From contig CBDBIB010000003.1 in NCBI GenBank assembly GCA_965205945.1, positions 448,394 to 512,393 on the forward strand: a DNA stretch of 64,000 bases, in the 5' to 3' direction. Positions 45,001 through 54,000 of the stretch are shown here, piece after piece. The DNA comes from Bdellovibrionales bacterium. GTDB taxonomy: Bacteria > Bdellovibrionota > Bdellovibrionia > Bdellovibrionales > UBA1609. A program made the position numbers. The stretch's first letter is position 1; each line of letters starts with the position of its first letter.

Positions 45001-48000
45001 CTTGTTATAAGTAAAGAGGCAGTCTTAAATAAGGAGAGTGGGGATTTTTTAAGTGAAGAGGAAAAATTAACTTTAGCAGAAGTTAAAGGTCAAGGATTTA
45101 ATAATATTGAATATGATTTTAGAAATAGATTAACTATTATATACGAGGCTCAAGTAGAGGCTGTTAATAATCAGGAAGAAGTGCTTTTAAAGCTTCGGGT
45201 TGAAAAAGGTTTAAAATCTGATCAATTAAAAGCTATGACGGAAATAAATTCTAAAGAGGCTGAGATTTTAAAGGCTAAGATTTTAAAATTAGATATAGAA
45301 ATCAAGCAGGTTGTAAGACAGCAGACTTTACTAGTGATAATTAAAGATAGTTTAGCAGAAGAGATTCAAAATTTGTAGTTAATAAAAATAATAGAAAAAA
45401 CACTTTTCAATCTTGTAGTATTTTATATAGTAAGTGCATGGAAGATTTTCTTGGTAAAAAAATCTTAAATAAAGAATGGTTTAAGGTTTTAAAAGATGAG
45501 TTTAAAAAGGACTACTTTAAAAACATAGAAGTATTTTTAAAAAAAGAATCTAAAGAAAAAACAATTTTTCCAAATTTTAAAAACTGTTTTTTAGCATTTA
45601 ACAAAACTCCCCTTTCAAAAGTTAAAGTGGTGATACTTGGACAAGATCCTTATCATAGAAAGGGTCAGGCAAATGGTTTAAGCTTCTCTGTTCCTAAAGG
45701 GTTTTGTATACCACCGTCTCTTAGAAATATTTTTAAAGAGTTATCAACAACATTTCCAAAAGAAAAATTTTTAACTGGAGATTTAAGTTCATGGGCGGAG
45801 CAAGGTGTTTTTCTTTTAAACAGTGTGTTGACTGTTGAAGAATCTAAGGCCGCATCGCATAGAAATAAAGGGTGGGAGTCTTTTACAGATTGTGTGCTTA
45901 AGATTTTAAATGAACAAGAACGACCTATAGTGTTTATGTTATGGGGAGCCTATGCTTACAAGAAAGCTTTGTTTTTAAGCAACAAGAGGCATTTAATCCT
46001 TTGTGCTTCCCACCCATCGCCATTGTCTGCTTACAGAGGTTTTTTAGGATGCCAACATTTTAAAATGACCCATGCATTTTTAAAAAAAAATAGTTTAAAA
46101 CCTATTAAATGGGGTTTTTAGACTCTCTTCTTTGAAATTTTGGCCTAATTAAGATAAACCCAGCAGTATGAGATTTATAGGTTTTGCAAGGTTTTTAGGG
46201 GTTTTTTTAATAAGTTTTTTAATCTCTTGTCGTGGTGTGAAAAAACATGAGTTTGTTTATTGTTCAGAAGGAGGACCAACAACATTTAACCCTCAGTTGG
46301 CCGGAGATGGTGTAACTTTTAACGCCTCTTCACAGCCTATTTATAACAGACTGCTTGAATTTAAAGAGGGCACAACAGATTTAATTCCTTCTCTTGCAAG
46401 ATCATGGCAAGTTTCTCAATCAAGCAAAGAAATTATTTTTAATTTAAGAGATGATGTGGAATTTCACACTACAGAATATTTTAAGCCTACAAGAAAGTTT
46501 AATGCTGACGATATTATATTTTCATTTTCTAAAATGATGGATTTAAACCATGAATATCATAAAACAATATCAGGCACTTATGAGTACTTTGAATCCATGG
46601 GGATGAGAAGAGTAATTAAAGAAATTAAAAAAATATCAGAATATAAGATTAAATTTATTTTAAAAGAAACTGAAGCCCCTTTTTTGTCTAATCTAGCAAT
46701 GGACTTTGCTAGCATTTTATCAAAGGAGTACGCAGACACTCTTCTTAAGAAAAAGAAAAAGGAAGATCTTAACAATAAGCCCATTGGGACAGGAGCATTT
46801 AAATTTCACTCTTATGTAAATGAAAAAAAAATACATTATTTAAGGCACAATAATTATTTTTTAGGTCCTAGTCAAATTTCTGATTTAGTTTTTTTAATTA
46901 TACCTGATCCAAATAAAAGACTTGAAAAACTAAGAAAAGGGGACTGTCATTTTGCAAAAAACTTTGCTTTCATAGCAAGAGGAGAGTTTAATTTAAAAGA
47001 TAAAATTAAATTGATTAAAGCTCCAGGTTTAAATATTAGCTATATAGGAATAAATTTAAGAAAGAAAAGGTTTAAGAATAAGAAGCTTAGAAAAGCTATG
47101 AGTAAAGCTTTAAATAGAAGAAGTTATGTTGATTCTATTTATTTAGGAAATGCTATTAAAGCAAAATCACCTCTTCCTCCAGGTATTTGGGCCTATGATA
47201 AAGACTTAAAAAATTTAGATTATGATTTAGAAGCAGCTAAGGTATTAATTAAAGATTCTGGTATAGATCTTCCAATGCAAGTAACACTGTGGACGCTTCC
47301 GGTATCAAGACCGTATAACCCAAATGGTAAAATTATGGGTGAGATGATTAAGGAGGATTTTAAGCAAATTGGAATTGAATTAAATTTAGTTACCTATGAC
47401 TGGCCTACATATTTACAAAAATTAAAACAAGGGGAGCATGAGTTAGTTGAATATGGCTGGTCTGCAGACAACGGAGACCCTGATAATTTTTTAAATATTT
47501 TGCTAAGTTGCTCAGGAGCAAAAGGGGGGACAAATGTTTCAGGTTTTTGCAATAAATCCTATGATAAACTTATTAATAAAGCAAGGCATGAGTTTTCTCA
47601 AAAAAAACGTAAAAATATATATAAAAAAGTTTTAAATCTTTTTCAAGAAGAGATGCCATTTTTACCAATAGCACATTCAAATCTTTTTCGAGTGATGAGG
47701 CAAGAGGTGAGAGGTTATGTTGTGCGGCCTATAGGAACAGAGTCTTTTTATAAAGTAAGGCTTAACTCGTGGAAATAAAAGGCGCGTTTAAGGAAAAAAT
47801 TTATTTTAAAGAAAAAATAGAAAAATCTCTTTTAAAAAGAAAAAACCACTATTTTTTTATAGACTCTTTTTTTAAAAACCATAAGCTTTTTAAAAACTGT
47901 CAGAATATAATATTCTTAAAGCCTGGAGAAGGTGTAAAGAATTTAACAACTTTAAACAAACTTATTAAATGGTTGCTTGACAATGGAGCTAATAAGAGCT

Positions 48001-51000: not shown

Positions 51001-54000
51001 ATCATAGGGCTTTTTTTAAAGAAAAATTTAAAGGAACCTATGTTCGTATTTCACTTTATAAGGATGAGTTTTTAAAAGAAAACTTAAATTTTATAAAATC
51101 ATTAGGTGTTCAATTTTTATCAGTAACATCACCGTTTAAAAAAAAGCTTGGAGATTTATCAGGGTATTTAGGAGGGGCAAATACGCTTTATATGAACGAG
51201 GATTTAAGAGCAAAAGACACAGACGCTTTGTCCATTTCTTTTTTAAAAAAAGAGCTTTTTAAAGTTAAATCAGTACTGATTTGGGGGGCTGGAAGTATGG
51301 GGGTTAAGATTTTTAAAAAAATTAGAGAAAAGACTGTTCTTCAATCGGTTCGTGACTATGAGGATGGAGCTTTACAGGGTAAAAGTTTTGAAGCTCTAAT
51401 TTGGTCAGCAGGGCCTGAATGTGTAATTAAACCAAAATTAAAAATTCCGCCAAAAGTGATTTATGATCTAGAGTATAAGGATCATTCTCAAGCTAAAGCG
51501 GTTGCTTTGTTGTGGGGTTGTGACTATATTTCGGGAAGAGATTTTTTTATAACTCAAGCTAAAGCACAACAAAAGTTTTGGTTAAGTTGTGTAGAAGGAA
51601 AAATTAAATGAGTAATACATATGGTCACTTATTTAAAATGACAAGTTTTGGTGAAAGTCATGGGAAAGGTTTAGGAGTTGTGATTGATGGTATGCCTTCA
51701 GGTGTTTTAGTGGATGAAGAAATTTTTATAGATTTTTTAAATAGAAGAAGACCTGGCGGTGAATTGATGTCTTTAAGGAAAGAATTAGATGAACCTGAAA
51801 TATTAAGTGGTATTATGGAAGGTAAAACATTAGGAACCCCGATTTCATGTGTTTTTAAGAATGTAGATGTTAGGTCTAAGGATTATAAAAATTTAAAGGC
51901 ACGTCGAGGGCATGCTGATGCTGTTTGGACAAAAAAATATGAGCATGTTGATTTAAGGGGAGGAGGCAGAAGCTCTGGAAGAGAAACTCTTGCCAGAGTT
52001 GTAGCCGGGGCTTTTGCAAAAATGGCGTTAATAAAAGAATTTCCTGATATACAAGTTAAAGCTGTAACGAGATCGATTTTTAAGTTTAAAGATGATAAAT
52101 ATTCGGATCAAGATTTTTTTAAAATTGATAAAACAAACCTAGGGTTCTTATCAAAAAAGGTGTCTATTAAGACGAGTAAAAATCTTTTAAAAGCTAAAGA
52201 AGAGGGCCAGAGTTACGGTGGTAGGGTTGAGGTAAGAGTTAAGAACCCGGTGCCTTCATTGGGGCAACCTATATATGGAAAAATTAAATCTAAACTTGCA
52301 GAAGCGGTTCTTTCTATTGGAGCGGTTAAGAGCTTTTCTTTAGGTGATGATGTGGATTTTTCTATATACGGAGGGCAAGAGTTTCACTGTATGCCAAAAT
52401 CCATTTATGGAGGAGTATTAGGGGGAATTACTACAGGTGATACAATACAGTTTTTTGTCGATATTAAGCCTTCTTCATCTATTCTTAATGTGGCTAAATC
52501 AGGCAGACATGATCCATGTATTGTTCCAAGAGTATTGGTGGTTTTAGAGTCTATGGTGTGGATGGTGTTGATGGATTTGTGGCTGCAAAGAAAAGTTGAA
52601 ATTAATTAAAGGGGGTATAAGTGAGAGATAAAAGGTTTTTAATTGTGGTAATCTTTATTTTTTTAAGCAGTTGTAACACAATACAAAAAAATAAAAATAA
52701 ATTTCTAAAGCACCCATTAAGTATTGTCCAAGGAACTACCGATTCAACACAAACATTCATATCGATTCTTTCTAAAAAAAAACAAGGTAACTTAAAGTTT
52801 TTTGTATCAAGGAGTGGGTCATTTCAAAAGCCTATTCAAATCCTTAGTTATTTTAAAAAAAAATCCCCGGATGGAAAATGGGTTATTGAAAGAATTCACA
52901 TTAAAAATCTTAAAAATTTTATAAAATATAAATTACTTGTGAAAGTAAAAGGAAAGATTATTGATGAAAGAAGTTTTCAAACATTGAATTTAAAAAGAGA
53001 GAATATTCGCATTGGTGTGGTTTCATGTATGGACGATAGAATTTCCTCAGCTAATAAAATGTGGGAGTCTTATTTAAATAGATTTCTTGATATAAATTTT
53101 TTTATTGGTGATAATGTATACGCTGATCGACTTGATGATGGGTCTGTAAAAATAGCTGATGAAAAACAGTTGTGGCAAAGGTATATTCAGACTTGGGGGA
53201 GATTATATTTTTATCATTCATCACAATTGAGTCCTACATATTATCTTTGGGATGATCATGACTACGGTAAAAATGATGGCGATGCTAGCTACGTACACAA
53301 GAAGGTGTCTGCAGAAATTTTTTGGACGTTTAATCCTAATGAAGAAATTACAGGGGTATACCAAAAAACTTTTGGAGTTGGTTCAATATTAAATGCATTT
53401 AATCAGAAATTTTTGTTTCTAGATGGAAGATTTTTTAGAGAAAATCAAAGAGGTGTTCATTGGGGATTTGATCAAAAAAAGAAAGTGCTAGATGAGATTA
53501 GAGCAAGTAGAGCGAAAATTAATTGGATGATTCAAGGCGATCAGTTTTTTGGTGCTTATCATCCATTTGAATCCTTTGAGAGAGATAATCCAAAAGAATT
53601 TAAAAATACGTTAGAAAGTTTAAAAAAAACGAATAAGAAGATTGTTTTTATAAGCGGAGATAGACATTTAACTGAGATTATGAAAATTAAAAAAGCAGTT
53701 CTTGGTTATAAAACTTTTGAAATTACTTCTAGTGGAATTCATGCAAAGGTTTTTCCAAAATCTTTTTTAAAATTTCCAAATCCAAGGGGAGAAGTAGGTA
53801 AATCAGGAGTTTATAACTATACAGTCATAGAGCTTTATCGTGATGGAGAAGAAAAAAAGCAGTTTAAAGTAACATCTTATGGAGCTAAAGACTGGATGCA
53901 CTACACAAAGGAATTATCACTATAAGCCTTTATTAAGGAGTTGTTTTCTTTGCGGTTTTAGGAACAGTACATAGTGTTACTGTTTTGAGTCAGGGTTTTA

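Follow-up and report, generated by a model that had tools for sequence, protein, structure and literature searches.

A bacterial shikimate kinase-dehydrogenase fusion with a probable hidden type I dehydroquinase domain in an AROM-ordered operon of a Bdellovibrionales genome

The window analysed in this study, a stretch of 64,000 nucleotides from a Bdellovibrionales bacterium, contains a chorismate operon that raises the question of how 3-dehydroquinate is dehydrated in a genome where family models find no dehydroquinase. The genome (1.87 Mb, 97.3% complete) carries DAHP synthase, 3-dehydroquinate synthase (DHQS), EPSP synthase (EPSPS) and chorismate synthase, the first of these elsewhere on the same contig, and also a menaquinone operon. 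The search for known dehydroquinases agreed with the first-pass annotation, which had reported none: DHquinase_I gave no match in the genome at E <= 10, and the single DHquinase_II match was noise (E 1.33, 9.1 bits). SKI and Shikimate_dh_N exceed their cut-offs in a single gene only, the fusion gene of the operon.

The operon occupies positions 47769-52609, with four overlapping or abutting open reading frames on the same (+) strand, namely aroB, aroA, the fusion gene and aroC. The aroB gene (47769..48755, +; DHQS, 328 aa) matched Pfam DHQ_synthase (E 5e-36) and DHQS_C (E 1.1e-15) and scored 224 bits with NCBIfam TIGR01357, below the cut-off of 305; its GTG start codon overlaps the 3' end of the preceding open reading frame, and its true start is uncertain. 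The end of aroB overlaps the start of aroA (48745..49905, +; EPSPS, 386 aa; Pfam EPSP_synthase, E 1.1e-40; TIGR01356, 193.9 bits, below cut-off) by 11 nt. The fusion gene, defined by its open reading frame and translation (49908..51611, +; C3:498301-500004 on the contig; 567 aa), starts 3 nt past the aroA stop, and its own stop overlaps by 4 nt the start of aroC (51608..52609, +; chorismate synthase, 333 aa), whose product matched Pfam Chorismate_synt (E 6.9e-87) and exceeded the TIGR00033 cut-off (259.3 bits, cut-off 212.2).

Based on sequence comparison and predicted structures, we propose, with a probability of about 0.85 for the explanation as a whole, that the fusion protein, translated from this tightly packed operon, is a working trifunctional enzyme catalyzing shikimate-pathway steps 3, 4 and 5. 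The folds of the domains, the conserved residues, the gene content and the gene order are shown by the data; the catalysis, its Schiff-base chemistry and the direction in which the family evolved are inferred. Pfam sees only part of it: as reported before, SKI at residues 22-153 (E 4.5e-12; 46.8 bits, cut-off 22.1) and Shikimate_dh_N at 352-414 (E 3.4e-08; 34.1 bits, cut-off 27) were recovered with nothing between them, and no NCBIfam model reached its cut-off, the best being TIGR00507 with 55.1 bits of the 200.2 needed. AlphaFold2 gave a confident prediction for the full-length protein (pLDDT 93.7, pTM 0.92), and a division into kinase, type I dehydroquinase (DHQase) and dehydrogenase domains is well supported.

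The N-terminal domain (residues 1-157; 49908..50378, +) is a shikimate kinase (SK) by its Pfam match, and its profile (A3) scored best among PDB sequences with bacterial shikimate kinases, reaching 62.2 bits to 2pt5. The P-loop GxxGxGK[TS] is invariant among 72 aligned homologues, as are G6, G9, G11, K12, D26, R48, G70, G72, R103 and R123 (72/72), and we take the P-loop, D26, R48, G70-G72, R103 and R123 to be the known shikimate-kinase residues. This domain would act as a P-loop kinase that phosphorylates shikimate. The C-terminal domain (residues 349-567; 50952..51611, +) is a shikimate dehydrogenase (SDH); the Pfam NADP-domain model of SDH found no match in the protein, and the dehydrogenase profile (A4) extends over AroE chains in full (2hk7, 79.1 bits, profile 2-218 on 9-250 of 269). 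Its K411, N425, T438, D439, G460, G462, Q550 and Q554 are invariant in the 72 homologues, and it would reduce 3-dehydroshikimate with NADPH, using the Lys411/Asp439 pair and a glycine-rich dinucleotide loop at 460-465.

The middle domain (residues 158-348; 50379..50951, +) is the part for which a hidden divergent type I 3-dehydroquinate dehydratase had been claimed, and both its lone-domain fold and the mapping of its residues onto E. coli AroD support this claim. Modelled alone (pLDDT 92, pTM 0.88), it is predicted to form a (beta/alpha)8 barrel with solved type I dehydroquinases as its nearest matches, and every chain at Foldseek ranks 1-47 was a type I DHQase or contained a DHQase. Pfam DHquinase_I (PF01487) did not match the fusion protein at E <= 1 or reach its gathering score, and it was absent from the 25 most-matched Pfam families listed for the 72 homologues, the 25th of which matched 4 homologues. 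The middle-domain profile found among PDB sequences at E <= 1 only two weak matches, 2ocz (E 0.015) and 2egz (E 0.17). It is well supported that the domain escapes the Pfam and NCBIfam family models, in which it differs from monofunctional AroD (E. coli/Salmonella; Aquifex 2egz; archaeal 2ox1). Further differences from these enzymes are its rewritten lid and its position between two other enzymes and, compared with E. coli AroD, a length of about 190 residues, shorter by about 60. Such a compact, highly divergent type I DHQase would be useful for defining what the fold really needs.

Concerning the candidate catalytic residues, hhalign comparison of a profile of 58 middle-domain sequences with E. 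coli AroD and relatives gave a probability of 92.9% (E 3.7e-07, 157 columns) and paired E179/E46, R181/R48, D183/D50, R207/R82, D227/D114, S249/S141, H251/H143, K270/K170 and Q333/Q236 (fusion/AroD), all columns being invariant or nearly so in the 72 homologues. AroD E46, R48, R82, D114, R213 and Q236 are presumably the substrate-binding residues; E179, R181, R207, D227 and Q333, which align with five of them, are conserved in 70-72 of 72 homologues. The invariance noted earlier for His251 and Lys270 holds in 72/72, and the two residues also align with the AroD His143 and Lys170 positions via 6hqv and 2ocz. A passage of PMC4114755 describes Lys170 of AroD as the Schiff-base lysine and His143 as a catalytic residue. 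From this pairing we infer that the compact barrel would dehydrate 3-dehydroquinate via a Schiff base formed by Lys270, His251 serving as the acid/base; the two lie 19 residues apart in the fusion versus 27 in E. coli AroD. L127, an 860-aa protein of DHQase-SDH-EPSPS layout from another family, has preserved the canonical type I motifs, and its alignment to the fusion profile is unbroken, starting in the latter half of the middle domain and continuing through the dehydrogenase; judged by sequence, L127 may be counted as a bridging relative in favour of the middle domain as a type I DHQase.

The divergence of the domain is also the starting point of two other explanations. In the beta8-alpha8 region, FLPRS...GRWxWYR stands where M-x-M...G-x-x-S-R is usual and DQP where APGQ is usual, and this altered region in a very divergent sequence might point to an active type I-fold enzyme with a changed substrate or reaction. 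We regard such a change as extremely improbable, considering that the residues by which AroD binds dehydroquinate are kept, although the pairing of Arg213 is ambiguous (the invariant R311 in the 6hqv alignment, a position 2-3 residues earlier in two others), that the domain is placed between the step 5 and step 4 enzymes inside a chorismate operon, and that the genome offers no other step-3 candidate for the pathway. The other explanation sees the middle domain as catalytically dead, a spacer or a scaffold for dimerisation; an enzyme that has escaped recognition would supply the activity, or the cell would skip the step by taking up an intermediate. This explanation could draw on the failure of all family models and on the lowest mean pairwise identity of the three domains (0.30, vs 0.39 and 0.37 for the other two). 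AroD Glu86 likewise has no conserved counterpart in the middle domain (72 homologues, hhalign), and by eye the Pfam-positive dehydroquinases of family f7 also have none at that spacing. A precedent is given in PMC9074039, where the type I DHQase domain of Candida albicans Aro1 is inactive inside the multi-enzyme. That dead domain, however, lost its catalytic residues and is compensated by a type II enzyme, whereas in the fusion both members of the Lys/His pair are invariant in 72/72, as are most of the residues for substrate binding.

Gene content bears on the same point. In a sample of 201 genomes of the phylum, none of the 52 with a full-length fusion had a type I or type II dehydroquinase, versus 66/79 among those in which kinase or dehydrogenase matches occurred only separately (58 type II, 8 type I). 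A 1.87-Mb genome that keeps the six other pathway enzymes and a menaquinone operon also fits a broken step poorly, and together these observations make a dead middle domain very unlikely. The proposal that the fusion fills the dehydroquinase gap of the genome is well supported, this complementarity being indirect evidence of the activity, and the trifunctional enzyme is real and probably working. The chorismate pathway, which looks broken, is probably complete, with the fusion and the DAHP synthase elsewhere on the contig supplying the remaining steps, and its chorismate appears to feed menaquinone rather than aromatic amino acids; the shikimate pathway of this small genome seems to be retained for menaquinone only.

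As neither Pfam nor NCBIfam models detect the middle domain, automated reconstructions will score the hosts of the fusion family as having no dehydroquinase. Such hosts, among them cultured Bdellovibrio and Pseudobdellovibrio strains, would then appear to be auxotrophic for chorismate. The large survey of PMC10665431 gives widespread predicted auxotrophies in Bdellovibrionaceae, with chorismate among its predicted products.

The gene order around the fusion is conserved among 80 public loci. EPSPS lies directly upstream in 64/73; the count of 8/19 for EPSPS in the first-pass annotation made the neighbourhood look less conserved than it is. DHQS-EPSPS-fusion occurs in 59/70, chorismate synthase directly downstream in 57/72, and the complete ordered set aroB-aroA-fusion-aroC in 45/64 informative loci. 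In 18 proteins of 894-1125 aa, plus L125, EPSPS is fused in front, so that four AROM domains stand in AROM order with aroB overlapping upstream; a search, in itself weak evidence, found no relatives of 1328-3790 aa. It is well supported that the family is concentrated in Bdellovibrionota. This is consistent with its description as a speciality of that phylum, the exclusivity of which was probed only with a family-specific search pattern.

A passage of PMC6851490 gives the AROM order as DHQS-EPSPS-SK-DHQase-SDH. This same order, from N to C, was found in the window at the gene and domain level, bearing out the AROM-like arrangement noted before: SK - type I DHQase - SDH is common to the fusion and to AROM/Aro1 of fungi and protists (6hqv, 7tbv, 7u5s), and aroB and aroA precede the fusion as the two corresponding domains do in AROM. 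All five enzymes in one polypeptide were not found, the fusion having three domains and some relatives four. The structural and profile matches to 6hqv, 7tbv and 2gpt were reproduced and became stronger with a deeper alignment; the best whole-protein PDB match was 6hqv (profile E 4.8e-28, Foldseek E 1.3e-19), in a single unbroken stretch of profile 3-489 on 871-1433.

These matches might suggest shared descent, in which a Bdellovibrionota-type aroB-aroA-[SK-DHQase-SDH] cluster or its ancestor was transferred and gave rise to AROM as its stop codons were lost one after another, or transfer ran in the opposite direction. The order is not the reaction order, and with every order taken as equally likely, five items would match by chance about 1 time in 120; the type I dehydroquinase and the four-domain relatives fit this idea as well. 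On the other hand, AROM is eukaryotic and the fusion bacterial, with a sequence identity of 13-16%, and AROM's DHQase is a normal DHquinase_I domain. The fusion model superposes poorly on AROM (rmsd 18-19 A, TM ~0.3, for a predicted arrangement). Among PDB sequences, bacterial enzymes come first with both the kinase profile (45.2 bits to 6hqv, at rank 13) and the dehydrogenase profile (52.8 bits to 7tbv, at rank 27), and the middle-domain search contained no AROM chain at E <= 1, only the bacterial 2ocz and 2egz. A specific relation of the domains to AROM was thus not found, and shared descent is unsupported because, domain by domain, the sequence lies nearer to single bacterial enzymes than to AROM.

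Other fusions also speak against it. The same phylum has SDH-SK (family f7) and DHQase-SDH-EPSPS (family f24) proteins, such fusions occur in other bacteria too, and further bacterial cases are EPSPS-DHquinase_I (Bacteroidales-labelled proteins) and EPSPS-SK. Like the fusion, they are adjacent shikimate genes merged into one frame, but with different orders and partners, the AROM order being confined to the studied family and its four-domain relatives; fusion as such is therefore common. We consider shared descent unlikely and are doubtful that bacteria preserve in this cluster, with its proteins of three or four domains, a living relative of the stages leading to AROM. If they did, AROM's non-pathway domain order would be inherited from a bacterial operon via transfer to an early eukaryote rather than being a eukaryotic invention. 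Most likely, bacterial genes were joined into the fusion inside Bdellovibrionota, this gene order afterwards allowed EPSPS to be added to the chain in some lineages, and the match to AROM reflects convergence or shared constraint. With bacterial three- and four-domain proteins in the exact AROM order, the assembly of AROM becomes testable by trees and structures.

A type I DHQase directly followed by SDH, as in the fusion, is also known from plants (Arabidopsis 2gpt/2o7s/6bmb) and Chlamydia-type bacteria (NF006802), the fusion having an additional N-terminal shikimate kinase. NF006802 matched only the dehydrogenase part (29.4 bits, cut-off 598). The two-domain part superposed moderately on Arabidopsis DHQase-SDH (TM 0.54/0.61, rmsd ~6 A, ~500 columns), and the fusion profile aligned with it at 183-580 on 23-498.

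In the window, four ORFs running in one direction between positions 47769 and 52609 overlap or abut one another: the DHQ synthase (DHQS) gene (aroB, 47769–48755, + strand; Pfam 3-dehydroquinate synthase), the EPSP synthase (EPSPS) gene (aroA, 48745–49905, +; Pfam EPSP synthase), the gene of the 567-aa fusion protein (49908–51611, +; C3:498301–500004 on the contig), and the chorismate synthase gene (aroC, 51608–52609, +; Pfam chorismate synthase). The first-pass annotation read the fusion as a shikimate kinase (SK), a hidden type I dehydroquinase (DHQase), and a shikimate dehydrogenase (SDH), of which family models see little. 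Our searches returned the same picture: Pfam found nothing beyond SKI (residues 22–153) and Shikimate_dh_N (352–414), and the NCBIfam cut-off was never reached, the top model being TIGR00507 with 55.1 bits against 200.2.

The middle domain (residues 158–348) was not recognized from its sequence by Pfam or NCBIfam. DHquinase_I gave no match to the window protein at E ≤ 1 and stood outside the 25 families most often matched among 72 members of the fusion family, the 25th of which had matches in 4 members. Among PDB sequences, the profile of 58 middle-domain sequences, picked from 88 loci having a tblastn match, had two matches only, both marginal and both to bacterial dehydroquinases: 2ocz (E 0.015) and 2egz (E 0.17). 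Because sequence-only recognition was null or marginal, the case for this domain rests on fold and profile–profile alignment.

The whole-protein profile aligned with the AROM polypeptide of Chaetomium (6hqv) in a single stretch through the dehydroquinase domain (3–489 = 871–1433, E 4.8e-28), and with the Arabidopsis DHQase-SDH over 183–580 = 23–498 (E 1.1e-25). Profile–profile comparison of the middle domain with six type I dehydroquinases that Pfam recognizes, all of them from a different family of this phylum, gave a probability of 84.7% (E 6.6e-06); once E. coli AroD was included together with a bridging relative, the value was 92.9% (E 3.7e-07) over 157 columns. The full-length fusion was modelled from 72 sequences with a pLDDT of 93.7 and a pTM of 0.92, and the middle domain alone with 92.0 and 0.88. 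When the latter model was compared with 48,161 PDB representatives by a method other than Foldseek, every one of the top eleven was a type I dehydroquinase or a dehydroquinase domain, and the best other TIM barrel scored 11.4; Foldseek ranks 1–47 were likewise type I dehydroquinases or chains containing one, with 3js3 at the top (E 8.9e-07, TM 0.71). The whole-protein profile, profile–profile, and fold lines thus concur, and the middle domain is predicted to be a type I dehydroquinase.

The profile–profile alignment paired the following fusion and AroD residues: E179/E46, R181/R48, D183/D50, R207/R82, D227/D114, S249/S141, H251/H143, K270/K170, and Q333/Q236. The Schiff-base lysine of type I dehydroquinases is Lys170, and their flexible catalytic histidine is His143 (PMC4114755). 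The counterpart of AroD Arg213 is the invariant R311 in one alignment and lies 2–3 residues earlier in two others, the alignments of family members hold no conserved counterpart of AroD Glu86 in the middle domain, and the His–Lys spacing is 19 in the fusion compared with 27 in AroD. According to PMC9074039, the dehydroquinase domain of Candida albicans Aro1 is inactive; Aro1 has lost catalytic residues and is compensated for by a type II enzyme, whereas neither applies to the fusion.

A word-indexed search returned 78 relatives of the fusion at E ≤ 0.001, nearly all of 540–660 aa with a query coverage of 98–100%, and HMMER, run exhaustively against 1.84 billion representatives, returned 352 clusters at E ≤ 1e-30. 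The alignment used here contains 72 of the 78, as P0016, P0052, P0074, P0075, P0077, and P0078 were partial or of low coverage. Invariant in it are the kinase residues G6/G9/G11/K12 of the P-loop, D26, R48, G70, G72, R103, and R123; the middle-domain residues E179, D183, D227, S249, H251, K270, P297, and R311; and the dehydrogenase residues K411, N425, T438, D439, G460, G462, Q550, and Q554. R181 (71/72), R207 (70/72), and Q333 (71/72) are nearly so. With mean pairwise identities of 0.39, 0.30, and 0.37 for the kinase, middle, and dehydrogenase domains, the middle domain is the most divergent of the three, yet clearly under constraint.

The need for such an enzyme can be read from the genome, an assembly of 1.87 Mb in 5 contigs (97.3% complete, contamination 0.08%). 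That a dehydroquinase is otherwise missing, as had been claimed, held up: DHquinase_I had no match at E ≤ 10, and DHquinase_II gave 9-bit noise only. SKI and Shikimate_dh_N exceeded their cut-offs in the fusion gene alone. DAHP_synth_2 was not found in the genome, and of its two DAHP_synth_1 genes, one exceeded the NCBIfam DAHP synthase cut-offs and the other is a KDO8P synthase. Together with the DHQS, EPSPS, and chorismate synthase of the window and the SKI/Shikimate_dh_N gene, the DAHP synthase covers all steps but dehydroquinase outside the middle domain.

The same complementarity extends across the phylum, where 201 sampled genomes, including this one, were searched with the fusion profile, PF01487, and PF01220; it is presented as a pattern and not as a statistic, because related genomes are not independent. 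At E ≤ 1e-100, the full-length fusion was present in 52 genomes (families f1, 13; f2, 20; f4, 1; f6, 1; f8, 11; f17, 5; f28, 1), two of the matches running off contig ends (G037 and G097), and none of the 52 had a type I or II dehydroquinase by PF01487 or PF01220. Matches of kinase or dehydrogenase size only were found in 79 genomes, 66 of which have a dehydroquinase (58 type II; 8 type I, each of these in f7). The other 13 lack a dehydroquinase match (G013, G015, G022, G041, G068, G077, G106, G117, G129, G151, G153, G163, and G169), and three f24 genomes among them (G106, G153, and G169) conceal one. The remaining 70 genomes had no profile match, and one of these, the 61% complete G092, encodes a type II enzyme. 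The mutual exclusion of fusion and dehydroquinase has zero exceptions among the 201 sampled genomes. Within the taxonomic order of the window, the fusion is present in 35 of 37 sampled genomes; of the other two, G140 encodes a type II enzyme and also has a separate kinase match.

From 171 confirmed matches in a scan of species-representative genomes, 80 loci were kept; the scan pattern, [IV]GHRGVGK[TS], is family-specific and silent on absence elsewhere. The titles of 77 loci bear Bdellovibrio-type, Oligoflexia, or Bacteriovoracaceae names, those of the other 3 read Deltaproteobacteria, Pseudomonadota, or 'bacterium' only, and the cultured strains Bdellovibrio sp. qaytius and Pseudobdellovibrio sp. 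HCB154 are represented. Gene order was determined by tblastn of the four window proteins, counting only loci with sufficient flank. EPSPS lies immediately upstream of the fusion at 64/73 loci, with DHQS there instead at 5/73; DHQS-EPSPS-fusion is found at 59/70, chorismate synthase (CS) immediately downstream at 57/72, and the full aroB-aroA-fusion-aroC order at 45/64. The 19 exceptions include rearranged loci, such as DHQS-fusion-CS-EPSPS at L122 and, at L069 and L095, DHQS-fusion apart from EPSPS-CS.

Richards et al. 2006 is said to be the main paper on AROM origins. The order of AROM is DHQS-EPSPS-SK-DHQase-SDH (PMC6851490, section 2.8), and the enzyme order of the fusion operon is identical, a coincidence that is notable because it differs from the reaction order. 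Neither the per-domain profiles nor the model superposition, in sequence or in structure, pointed to a special tie between the two. Against PDB sequences, the kinase profile ranked 11 bacterial kinases (62.2–50.5 bits) and a plant kinase ahead of 6hqv (45.2 bits), the dehydrogenase profile placed Aquifex AroE (79.1 bits) and Arabidopsis (69.2) above the AROM chains (52.8–44.4), and the middle-domain profile matched exclusively bacterial entries. The middle-domain model resembles the Aquifex and archaeal enzymes more closely than it does AROM domains, by >2 Z units, and the whole model superposes on the Arabidopsis DHQase-SDH (TM 0.54/0.61, rmsd ~6 Å), whereas its superposition on AROM fails (rmsd 18–19 Å). 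As each domain profile ranks bacterial single enzymes above AROM and the whole model is not superposable on it, shared descent is improbable, although the rapid evolution of fungal AROM could mask a true kinship, and a protein-language-model atlas, taken as a lead only, lists an Ascomycota SK-DHQase-SDH third (0.92) after two Bdellovibrionota clusters (0.97 and 0.96). The fusion, as a bacterial SK-DHQase-SDH, is predicted to belong with the multifunctional shikimate enzymes.

Some relatives come closer to the domain content of AROM. P0122 and P0143 (975 and 991 aa) carry EPSP_synthase ahead of the kinase, and a search with the 1079-aa protein of G073 found 16 further clusters (P0210–P0225, 894–1125 aa) built alike. 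The G073 gene (L125:4584–7823, +) encodes EPSPS-SK-DHQase-SDH; a DHQ synthase gene overlaps it on the upstream side, and the chorismate synthase gene lies downstream. Its product has four of the AROM domains, ordered as in AROM, and the fifth is encoded by the neighbouring gene. In a quick-search LG+G4 tree of the shared three-domain region (91 rows × 583 columns), the 18 four-domain proteins fell into three clades among three-domain ones (support 97, 100, and 100; 3 changes). A single four-domain clade was not rejected by the AU test (p 0.586), the constrained tree being 8.3 log-likelihood units better, and a claim of repeated independent EPSPS fusion was therefore dropped; since a tree uniting these proteins survives, one to three fusion events are possible. 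A search among proteins of 1328–3790 aa found no five-domain bacterial form at E ≤ 1e-10, which is weak evidence against one.

Other designs occur in the same phylum. The f7 cluster of G011 (L040:1–3367, +) holds DAHP synthase, DHQ synthase, an ordinary type I DHQase, and a 447-aa SDH-SK fusion; it follows the reaction order and is a third fusion design in one phylum. In f24, an 860-aa DHQase-SDH-EPSPS protein (G169, L127:4192–6774, +), with similar frames in G106 and G153, is followed downstream by a separate kinase and then DAHPS. Pfam sees only its EPSPS part and misses the N-terminal dehydroquinase; the N-terminal 230 residues retain the canonical ELRLD, SFH, IKLA, MGxxGR, and APGQ motifs, and no other dehydroquinase was seen in the three genomes. 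The protein matches two profiles, that of the f7 dehydroquinases and that of the fusion, the latter unbroken over 253–580, and the NCBIfam bifunctional DHQase/SDH model spans its junction. It is a second predicted hidden dehydroquinase, and it bridges ordinary type I enzymes and the middle domain of the fusion. Bacterial shikimate gene fusions are widespread. The proteins P0229–P0329 include many EPSPS-DHquinase_I fusions of ~640–800 aa labelled Bacteroidales or Bacteroides, EPSPS-cytidylate kinase fusions, EPSPS-SK fusions of 624 aa, and ~700-aa proteins with EPSPS, Shikimate_dh_N, and SKI, one labelled Kiritimatiellae.

The family is already in databases under kinase names, as the first-pass annotation had noted, and its named relatives are labelled shikimate kinase or shikimate 5-dehydrogenase/shikimate kinase. 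The literature searched on Bdellovibrio shikimate genes, trifunctional kinase/dehydroquinase/dehydrogenase enzymes, AROM, and AROM gene transfer, with subscription journals outside its scope, gave no description of the fusion; the terms co-occurred only in unrelated CASP summaries. Nor did it yield the recognition of the dehydroquinase, its complementarity across genomes, the relatives with four domains, or the parallel to the AROM order.

Concerning the use of chorismate, neither a CM_2 chorismate mutase nor a prephenate dehydratase was found in the genome, the AroH-type mutase family being outside this search. The only chorismate-binding enzyme best matches isochorismate synthase, below the cut-off of the model. 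Its MenF-like gene heads a row of MenD-, MenH-, MenA-, and MenC-like genes divergent from the DAHP synthase gene (the paired locus at C3:276,200–281,900; L130:4222–9892, outside the window), of which only the MenA-like one exceeds an NCBIfam cut-off (TIGR00751, 106.3 vs. 102.15 bits). Because CM_2 and prephenate dehydratase were not found and the single chorismate-binding gene heads this row, the chorismate of this organism is probably used for menaquinone and not for aromatic amino acids.

A scan of window positions 44000–56000 for promoters and terminators showed no excess over shuffles. The upstream flank (46168–47778, +) encodes a family-5 solute-binding protein; the end of its gene overlaps the annotated GTG start of aroB. 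The downstream flank (52621–53925, +) encodes a 434-aa protein whose sole match, PhoD-like, is weak and below cut-off (E 6.1e-05). Transcription may extend beyond the four genes, and the start position of aroB is uncertain. Further upstream, a 2257-aa ORF (37468–44241, +) lies within raised G+C (0.40 vs. ~0.30–0.35 in the surroundings).
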